In this document: positions 34,302-34,374 of the stretch, in pieces
How the letters are laid out: the number at the start of each line of letters is the position of its first letter
Position numbering within the stretch: position 1 is the stretch's first letter
Origin: Patescibacteria group bacterium
Lineage (GTDB): Bacteria > Patescibacteriota > Patescibacteriia > Patescibacteriales > UBA12465
NCBI GenBank assembly: GCA_041671365.1
Contig: JBAZBP010000001.1
Location: 453,518 to 517,517 of the forward strand
Direction of reading: 5' to 3'
DNA length: 64,000 bases
Position numbers and translations under genes: made by a program
Notes under the pieces: generated by a model
What the model was told of the DNA's origin: nothing
What the model saw: the letters and a program-made list of their open reading frames with translations, nothing else
Database searches by the model: none

Positions 34302-34374
34302 ACCTGCCGAGGTTGGCTGGTGGCCGATTCCGCGTCCGGCTCCGCCGGAGGAACGGCCACCAGTCTCGGCAGGT
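34302..34374 (+). other. 73-nt GC-rich extended hairpin; candidate replication origin (dso/sso) or structured RNA of the element
   Basis: acctgccgag(34302-11)/ctcggcaggt(34365-74) and ctggtggccg(34317-26)/cggccaccag(34354-63) form 20 bp of stem. An inner tccgg/ccgga stem sits in the loop. Strongly GC-rich in an AT-rich context and lies upstream of rep. Confidence 0.6.

Follow-up and report, generated by a model that had tools for sequence, protein, structure and literature searches.

A 75-nucleotide (nt) compound hairpin at positions 34301-34375 of a 64,000-nt stretch of DNA from a Patescibacteria group bacterium (assembly GCA_041671365.1, contig JBAZBP010000001.1, positions 453,518 to 517,517; the whole stretch is called the window, and positions are counted from its first letter) belongs, as a cis-acting DNA structure, to the replication-origin region of an integrative element, and is most likely its single-strand (lagging- or minus-strand) origin, a role assigned here with moderate confidence. 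The element measures 10.3 kb, is bounded by att sites (26460-36744) and encodes an HUH rolling-circle replication protein (Rep) downstream of the hairpin. Among related elements the hairpin is conserved by position and pairing, not by sequence, and it is exchanged as a cassette. Most likely, the Rep nick falls outside the hairpin, 18 nt 3' of it, between G34393 and A34394 (TTAACTTG↓ATTATA, the arrow marking the nick), as predicted from a conserved motif that resembles the phiX174 and pC194 origins.

Structure and stability of the hairpin

The minimum-energy DNA fold of 34301-34375 is a single hairpin with 32 pairs, the architecture of which is given in Table 1. An earlier reading of this DNA, made from the letters alone (the sequence-only reading), had described two perfect 10-bp stems at 34302-34374 and a further tccgg/ccgga apical stem, and sequence and pairing were found exactly as described: ACCTGCCGAG (34302-34311) is paired with CTCGGCAGGT (34365-34374), CTGGTGGCCG (34317-34326) is paired with CGGCCACCAG (34354-34363), and the apex consists of TCCGGC/GCCGGA around a 3-nt loop (TCC). 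One basal A-T pair (34301/34375) and one G-T pair are gained beyond these stems. Folding with DNA and with RNA parameter sets, which had been proposed as a check, gave a strong hairpin both ways. As DNA, the + strand folds with -35.8 kcal/mol (z = -9.5; 0 of 200 dinucleotide shuffles equally stable) and the - strand with -32.6 kcal/mol (z = -6.8); as RNA, the value is -58.1 kcal/mol (z = -7.6). No other 100-nt fold of the window comes close to it (-58 vs -38 for the next; mean -14.5, standard deviation 5.9). The segment is strikingly GC-rich, as had been noted (GC fraction 0.54-0.61 vs 0.37 in the window), and the distance to the Rep start codon (ATG 34605), estimated before at about 230 nt, was measured as 231 nt.

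Searching Rfam covariance models over the hairpin gave no match at the gathering threshold or at E<=1, and a promoter scan found no promoter-like hexamers at or near it. As an intrinsic terminator the hairpin failed, no T-run being present after it (GTGCCACCTC follows); the hairpin families carry a T-run on the 5' side and an A-run on the 3' side, opposite to the layout of a terminator. The sequence-only reading had placed the hairpin after two terminators: one of them was reported by the terminator scan, and the other was recognised by eye and is absent from the scan output (Table 1). Two other candidate explanations were rejected. Each 10-mer arm occurs perfectly only once in the window, and in all loci the cassette cores stand solely beside the motif described below, which excludes a repeat family of the host genome; a tRNA-like or att role was excluded by the distance of the att cores, 7.8 kb and 2.3 kb away.

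Survey of related loci

Species-representative genomes were searched with the window Rep (4 loci, in Falkowbacteria and other uncultured bacteria), metagenome contigs were scanned with an exact 27-mer pattern of the motif (26 further loci), and IMG/VR was scanned with a shorter core pattern, which retrieved eight inovirus-like contigs (L038-L045; single loci are cited by such numbers). With the exact 27-mer pattern nothing was retrieved from IMG/VR, and a blastn search of the GenBank phages with hairpin and motif returned chance 26-nt matches only. Homologues of the window Rep were found in inoviruses, plectroviruses, microviruses and small Firmicute plasmids that use rolling-circle replication (RCR).

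A strong hairpin was present 5' of the motif in everything examined, namely 30 distinct genome and metagenome loci, the eight IMG/VR genomes and the plasmids pHT926 and pGTG5. In 26 of the 30 distinct related loci no other 100-nt DNA fold of the whole locus is as stable, and in seven of the eight inovirus-like genomes the hairpin likewise ranks first. From the foot of the hairpin to the predicted nick the distance is 8-68 nt across the loci, and in three of them (L008, L025 and L029) a second, small hairpin stands between the main hairpin and the motif. Falkowbacteria GW2011, Magasanikbacteria and Moranbacteria, with Reps 40-44% identical, have unrelated hairpins 12-37 nt before CTTAACTTGATTATA. 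Six derivatives that have lost rep (L005, L008, L014, L024, L025 and L029) keep hairpin and motif, as expected of cis-acting sites.

In these rep-less loci the motif is followed by the last ~50 nt of rep, by xis (or a remnant of it) and by the integrase gene; they look non-autonomous.

Exchange of the hairpin as a paired cassette

The hairpins fall into families that are unrelated in sequence: A (the window type), B1-B3, C and several singletons. The family A cassette was also found in L009, L010, L011, L012, L015, L022 and L030. In this family 95% of the cells are paired, and three pairs are changed on both sides, compared with 1.1 ± 0.6 in shuffles (three are reached in 8 of 500) and 0-1 in controls with slid partners; four compensatory pairs were found in family B. 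Covariation in homologous elements had been named by the sequence-only reading as a check, and the outcome supports the structure: the hairpin is at the same place in all of them, with compensatory changes and full turnover of its sequence.

The breakpoints of the exchange were located by comparing close relatives. The Reps of the window element (type A) and of L001 and L023 (type B) share 94-96% identity, and at the nucleotide level homology sets in precisely at 34386, where the motif begins. Apart from the hairpin type, L011 (type A) and L020 (type B) are one and the same element. In the comparison of the window with L011, homology starts at 34303, at the left foot of the hairpin, where a CCT microhomology is found. 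A and B cassettes are swapped between elements with rep regions 93-96% identical; an exchange that is independent of Rep, together with the variable spacing to the nick, fits a host-directed module rather than a Rep-specific one.

The 29 distinct hairpins comprise 905 Watson-Crick pairs, with eight G-T pairs on the + strand and eight on the - strand (<1%). A structured RNA is expected to hold far more wobble pairs. Their scarcity and their symmetry between the strands fit a DNA palindrome rather than an RNA helix.

The invariant motif and the predicted nick site

The sequence that adjoins the hairpin on its 3' side is a 31-mer, TTAACTTG↓ATTATACGCACACTTAAGAACAC when the predicted nick is marked. 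It was recognised as an invariant 30-31-mer with the consensus TTAACTTGATTATAyrCACACTTAAGAACA, directly 3' of the hairpin in five of five genome loci; 5' of it the sequences of these loci are unalignable, each having a long hairpin of its own there. The hexamer CTTGAT is situated 15-20 nt outside the hairpin. The 5' core of the motif, CTTAACTTGATTATA, is kept throughout the Rep family (all loci, the viral contigs and pHT926), including upstream of Reps only 36-44% identical to that of the window. The 3' half varies with the Rep clade, being GCACACTTAAGAAC in the clade of the window and CCACACATCTAACG in the clade of the viruses and Falkowbacteria GW2011, and is the presumed binding region of Rep. 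Published double-strand origins have a conserved nick region beside a less conserved bind region (PMC2440964), and a conserved core with a clade-specific 3' half fits this pattern.

Within the motif, AACTTGAT matches the phiX174 origin, which is annotated at 4306 in the GenBank record; according to this record, viral-strand synthesis starts at the A after CTTG. The core TAACTTGATTATA..CACAC corresponds to CAACTTGATATTAATAACAC of the phiX174 origin. Aligned on the nick core, TAACTTGATTATACGCACAC in the window stands against CAACTTG↓ATATTAATAACAC in phiX174 and TCTTGATAATAA in the pC194 origin, and in all of them the conserved core is followed by a variable 3' region. The nick consensus of the pC194 family, of which pSAM2 is a member, is CTTGAT (PMC2440964). 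For Xanthomonas phage phiLf, CTTG is likewise regarded as the sequence that a superfamily I Rep recognises and nicks.

The three canonical motifs of the window Rep, which include the HUH motif and the YxxKY two-tyrosine motif, are colinear with those of phiX174 protein A (FLTLTF/FDTLTL, HYHVL/HFHAV and YVSKYIGK/YVAKYVNK); the BLAST match of the two proteins is not statistically significant (E = 0.056), and no PDB relative of the Rep was found by sequence. Unlike the window origin, which is intergenic with the hairpin always before it, that of phiX174 lies within gene A, with no long hairpin next to it. The suggestion that the hairpin is a candidate rolling-circle origin needs to be divided: it is a non-coding structure in the origin region of an HUH-Rep replicon, but the predicted nick lies outside it.

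Variants of the motif occur in some relatives. A 'type 2' motif, TTAACTTGACCATACGCACACACC, was found upstream of a 40%-identical Rep in L021, where it stands alone (L021:524-550). In L017, L019, L021 and L027, type 1 and type 2 motifs are in tandem, the second being the divergent TTAACTTGACyATAsGCACACAsC; here hairpin and motif stand upstream of a gene for a large serine recombinase, which takes the place of rep-xis-int. Tandem elements appear to be present in L019 and L021. If Rep transferred strands at a nick site common to the elements, breakpoints at the motif and motifs in tandem would be the expected outcome; the breakpoints also lend indirect support to site-specific nicking by Rep.

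Role of the hairpin

The following course of events is proposed for the element. After excision by Int and Xis, it would form a circle and replicate by the rolling-circle mode. A two-tyrosine Rep of the phiX174-A/pHT926 type would recognise 34386-34416 and nick the + strand at 34393/34394. The hairpin would be a separate module that is not tied to the specificity of Rep, and it would be displaced last because it is located just 5' of the nick. Folded in the displaced + strand, it would remain free of single-stranded-DNA-binding protein (SSB), and the host priming machinery would begin synthesis of the complementary strand there. We infer the nick position, the Rep activity and the priming role alike.

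Replicons of the RCR type need a single-strand origin, and it is the enzymes of the host, not Rep, that serve it (PMC5714925; PMC7072734). The properties of such an origin are found in a structure that is always 5' of the nick, selected for pairing, interchangeable in type, independent of Rep and kept when rep is lost. In the element of the window the hairpin is the sole conspicuous conserved structure; its region is non-coding, is extensively paired within the strand and is maintained by selection. The single-strand origins known from RCR plasmids (sso) and the minus-strand origin of the filamentous phage Ff are likewise non-coding and strongly folded, lie just 5' of the plus-strand nick, are served by the host rather than by Rep and come in few interchangeable types. 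In contrast to them, the hairpins described here are shorter (~45-110 nt) and nearly perfect. The alternative offered by the sequence-only reading, a long hairpin acting as single-strand origin, is the best-supported reading, although as a candidate role only.

Several observations weigh against this assignment. The loop motif CS-6 of ssoA is TAGCGT/A. On inspection of 34301-34375, TAGCG was absent, and neither the CS-6 nor the RSB motif of ssoA was found; the hairpin also lacks promoter-like hexamers in the promoter scan. In type B2 hairpins TAGCGAG is present. Family A hardly varies in its inner 50 nt, and this implies that some factor recognises the sequence specifically. No strand asymmetry was found that would show the orientation dependence typical of single-strand origins: the + strand is the more stable one in 19 of 29 hairpins, but by only 0.56 kcal/mol on average. 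Plasmid pHT926 has a second, longer palindrome ~350 nt upstream that is more like a classical single-strand origin, so that the hairpin next to its origin may have a different, origin-linked role. Finally, the same position could hold a packaging signal in the inovirus-like relatives.

Among the other explanations, the one that would make the hairpin an accessory of the double-strand origin is possible, though it is considered clearly less probable than a single-strand origin. The hairpin would then fold in the displaced strand or as a cruciform and aid Rep in initiation or termination at the neighbouring nick, in the manner of the GC-rich hairpin a few nt 5' of the 3' end of Helitron and IS91 elements, or of the inverted repeat 5' of nic in an origin of transfer (oriT). 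Its constant place 5' of the nick motif, at 8-68 nt in all the loci, plasmids and phages examined, would suit this role, as would the perfect two-strand symmetry in the case of a cruciform. If the distal palindrome of pHT926 were the sso of that plasmid, the origin-adjacent hairpin, 2 nt from TTAAC, would be left over for it. The window Rep also matches Helitron_like_N and RepSA weakly, and related Reps have been proposed as relaxases in streptococcal mobilisable elements (PMC5357655). Against an accessory function stand the variable spacing and the extra hairpin that intervenes in L008, L025 and L029. Moreover, the sequence and loop of the hairpin are replaced between elements with near-identical Reps, from which it follows that Rep cannot read the hairpin sequence. 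The same two features separate it from the inverted repeat of an oriT: at 8-68 nt from the nick, the repeats are unrelated in sequence between elements with near-identical Reps. The origin of phiX174, which has the same nick core, is not known to need such a hairpin.

A packaging signal of a filamentous phage, perhaps serving as minus-strand origin too, is regarded as rather improbable for the hairpin; the window element, which has no virion genes, would be a satellite of a helper inovirus. In its favour, L003, L016 and L018 encode a Zot/pI morphogenesis ATPase, the gene of which ends ~20-100 nt 5' of the hairpin, and a full set of inovirus-like genes (SSB-like, coat-like, pIII-like, pVI-like and Zot) is present in the eight IMG/VR genomes, where the long hairpin separates the last morphogenesis genes from the origin. 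The phages Ff and Ike have a packaging signal with a 22-24-bp stem at the matching position, and in phiLf a GC-rich dyad packaging signal adjoins the CTTG origin; like the hairpin, all three signals are GC-rich dyads in intergenic DNA beside the origin. Each hairpin type is, in addition, strongly conserved in sequence. Inovirus-like prophages of Candidate Phyla Radiation bacteria have been reported (PMC6813254). The setting of a packaging signal is accordingly found in L003, L016, L018 and L038-L045, but not in the window element: Zot genes were sought in all loci and detected only in L003, L016 and L018, and neither Zot nor coat genes are present in 26460-36744 or in most related loci, although the 10.3-kb element is complete. 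The type of the hairpin does not obviously follow the morphogenesis genes, type B being found both with and without Zot. Plasmids pHT926 and pGTG5 have the same architecture and no virion, and the viral genomes hold a second conserved structure downstream of rep that is itself a possible packaging signal.

It is very unlikely that the hairpin acts as RNA, whether as a stabiliser in the 5' untranslated region, as a site of processing, as terminator or insulator, or as a small RNA from the orf75-rep-xis-int operon. Its stability as RNA is very high and it is immediately upstream of this operon; in the subfamily that shares the upstream region, a sequence GTGCCA-N16-yATATA, a weak match recognised by eye, would put the start of transcription near the hairpin foot. 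The absence of a U-run after the hairpin, with T-run 5' and A-run 3', the two terminators already upstream, the lack of any Rfam or promoter match and the rare, strand-symmetric G-U pairs all speak against a role in RNA, and the same architecture is found in plasmids and phages with different first genes.

The sequence-only reading had considered nicking in the loop, and plasmids pT181 and pMV158 and the geminiviruses do present their nick site in a hairpin loop (PMC2440964; PMC5714925). That the hairpin is itself the double-strand origin, nicked by Rep in an apical or internal loop, is nevertheless highly improbable: the loop has only 3 nt, loops, bulges and stems share no sequence across the hairpin families that serve 94-96% identical Reps, the spacing varies, and the family-wide CTTGAT is outside the hairpin. 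The chance that the segment encodes a protein N-terminus (from 34313, or on the minus strand in the open reading frames (ORFs) 34264-34416 and 34298-34489) is negligible, since the frames are open through the region but close relatives have unrelated sequence upstream of 34386 and protein conservation starts at ATG 34421 of orf75, the extended ORF having no family match; the ORF from 34313 had been suspected to be an artefact, rightly so.

The integrative element and its genes

The hairpin is internal to the element because direct repeats derived from a tRNA end flank it. Coordinates are collected in Table 1. All genes from orf75 to int are on the + strand, in the order orf75-rep-xis-int-tRNA-Asn; the order rep-xis-int and the use of tRNA-Asn or tRNA-Gly as target recur in relatives. 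A second short repeat, CACAATAGCGTCACAA, just inside both ends (26605-26620 and 36613-36628) and also present in L004, may represent the arm-type sites of the integrase.

Table 1. Features of the integrative element and of its origin region, in window coordinates.
Feature	Position	Strand	Description
attL core	26460-26480		identical 21-bp direct repeat; left boundary of the element
type II restriction endonuclease	27295-28083		cargo
methyltransferase	28088-28951		cargo; 98% identical in five other loci
xseB + xseA	29047-30758		odd cargo; xseA is split into two ORFs
HerA-like ATPase	30770-33049		cargo; N-terminal membrane domain
orf313	33174-34115	+	cargo; adjoins the hairpin on its upstream side; most relatives also have same-strand genes there
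second terminator-like hairpin	~34153-34178		CGGCTAAATTAGCCG then T7; by eye, absent from scan output
terminator-like hairpin with T-run	34204-34235	+	closes the upstream gene; terminator scan (reports 34204-34227)
hairpin	34301-34375		from base to top: 11-bp outer stem, 4-nt 5' bulge (GTTG), 11-bp middle stem, 4-bp stem, 6-bp apical stem, 3-nt loop
origin motif, predicted double-strand origin	34386-34416	+	invariant 31-mer TTAACTTGATTATACGCACACTTAAGAACAC; conservation and match to phiX174/pC194
orf75	34421-34648	+	small conserved gene overlapping the start of rep; true start of the ORF tracked from 34313
rep	34605-35315	+	HUH rolling-circle Rep of 236 amino acids; two catalytic tyrosines (YVSKY); Pfam PF23343 (1e-20), phrog_3419 (4e-31)
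xis	35348-35563	+	excisionase-like HTH_17 protein; Pfam/PHROG searches
int	35572-36684	+	tyrosine integrase; Pfam Phage_integrase (1.4e-31), phrog_1 (2.5e-64)
attR core	36724-36744		GCTCCCGGGGTCGGATTCGAA, 21 nt; 3' end of tRNA-Asn; repeated at 26460-26480

The protein encoded by orf75 is 81-95% identical in amino acid sequence in 17 loci, with ATG 34421 conserved, and has no family in Pfam, PHROGs, NCBIfam or PADLOC. No family was found for orf313 in these four collections either, and no similarity was detectable between it and the 271-amino-acid gene product of the viral relatives. The HerA-like ATPase looks defence-related.

Between rep and xis, the segment 35322-35351 (TTGACGCGAACCCCCGCGCTCTTGTATTGC) is conserved in all relatives, the rep-less ones included. 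It is promoter-like (TTGACG-N18-TATTGC), contains an embedded 5-bp GC hairpin and is probably the promoter or an operator of xis-int. At the other end of the element, the 815 nt inside attL (26481-27294) contain few ORFs and a stable fold at ~26770-26830 (-33 kcal/mol, RNA parameters); the first ~150 nt, just inside attL, are conserved with the left end of the related L010 element.

The integration target is a tRNA-Asn(GUU) gene on the minus strand (36724-37348), which adjoins the integrase gene and was missed by ARAGORN. A 552-nt group I intron (36763-37314; RF00028, 83.8 bits), which carries an ORF resembling an HNH homing endonuclease (36953-37279), interrupts this gene between nucleotides 35 and 36 of the anticodon. 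Once spliced, its exons match the uninterrupted tRNA-Asn of L002 with 100% identity.

Further features of the relatives

The viral and integrative relatives have additional elements in their replication modules. In five inovirus-like genomes (L038, L039, L041, L044 and L045), a second long structure is conserved ~+1000 to +1160 nt past the motif, between rep and the serine recombinase gene; it consists of GAGACCTAACAAAAT...ATTTTGTTGGGTCTC, is branched at its apex and has CCGTCCCTTTTTGT after it. It could be a packaging signal, an attP site or a non-coding RNA. A protein of 86-99 amino acids (MxKLTGILKKEEIxEFTRKDGT...) is encoded in L031 (2650-2910), L039, L040, L041 and L043; it is 59-64% identical between the Falkowbacteria integrative element and the viral contigs, is not encoded by the window element and is probably a gene-V-like single-stranded-DNA-binding protein.

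The apex of the B2 hairpins (for example in L003, L008 and L014) contains the direct repeat GGCGAGC-N6-7-GCGAGCC. In the Ralstonia inovirus RSM1 (L048, ~6067-6090), GGGGCGAGCGCAGCGAGCCCC is directly 5' of CTACTTGTAGTAATAACAC, upstream of a homologous Rep, and AGCGA/GCGAG repeats are also present in the palindrome apexes of pGTG5 and pHT926. Apex repeats of the GCGAG type may constitute a shared recognition motif.

Comparison with known replicons

The nearest small plasmids are pHT926 (Brevibacillus) and pGTG5 (Geobacillus), whose Reps are 36-41% identical over 75-96% of the length of the window Rep. In pHT926 a GC hairpin precedes TTAACTTGATTATAGCGACACATTAGAACAC by 2 nt; in pGTG5 a long palindrome stands ~25 nt before TTTACTTGATTATAG, and the outer arms of this large palindrome resemble the distal palindrome of pHT926. 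Both are autonomous thermophile plasmids of 1.5-1.8 kb that, unlike the window element, have no integrase, and their hairpins are unrelated to it in sequence.

With the integrative, conjugative elements of actinomycetes (AICEs) of the pSAM2 type and with streptococcal mobilisable elements, the window element shares the order rep-xis-int, integration into a tRNA gene and the nick consensus of the pC194 family. Tyrosine integrases are associated with Rep domains of the pHT926 type (PMC5357655). Unlike both groups, the window element has a Candidate Phyla Radiation host (with Falkowbacteria-like relatives), shows weak similarity to RepSA and encodes no translocase of the TraSA/TcpA type. By analogy, it may work like an integrative replicon of the pSAM2 type or of the type of the integrative and mobilisable elements (IMEs). 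Inovirus-like prophages of Candidate Phyla Radiation bacteria have this replication module too, as do plasmids of the pHT926 type. The architecture of a hairpin plus CTTGAT was already known; new here are the delineation of this family's origin and clear evidence for exchange of the hairpin as a cassette.

Significance

A broader scheme can be drawn, which we regard as speculative and rather doubtful. The hairpins would be interchangeable 'single-strand handles' for priming and packaging, and virion-less elements, those with defence cargo (such as that of the window) and those that have lost rep, would be replicated in trans and packaged as satellites by filamentous phages of Candidate Phyla Radiation bacteria. 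Rep-mediated strand transfer at CTTG↓AT would shuffle the cassettes and the integrase modules, tyrosine or serine, between them.

For the elements themselves, the spurious ORF through the hairpin can be removed from the annotation, and a concrete case of module shuffling at a rolling-circle nick site is provided. The likely origin is located to the nucleotide in widespread, uncharacterised integrative elements and inovirus-like prophages, the hosts of which are Candidate Phyla Radiation bacteria, without genetic tools. The two-part origin, made up of the predicted nick site and a modular hairpin, would offer a compact and testable origin cassette.

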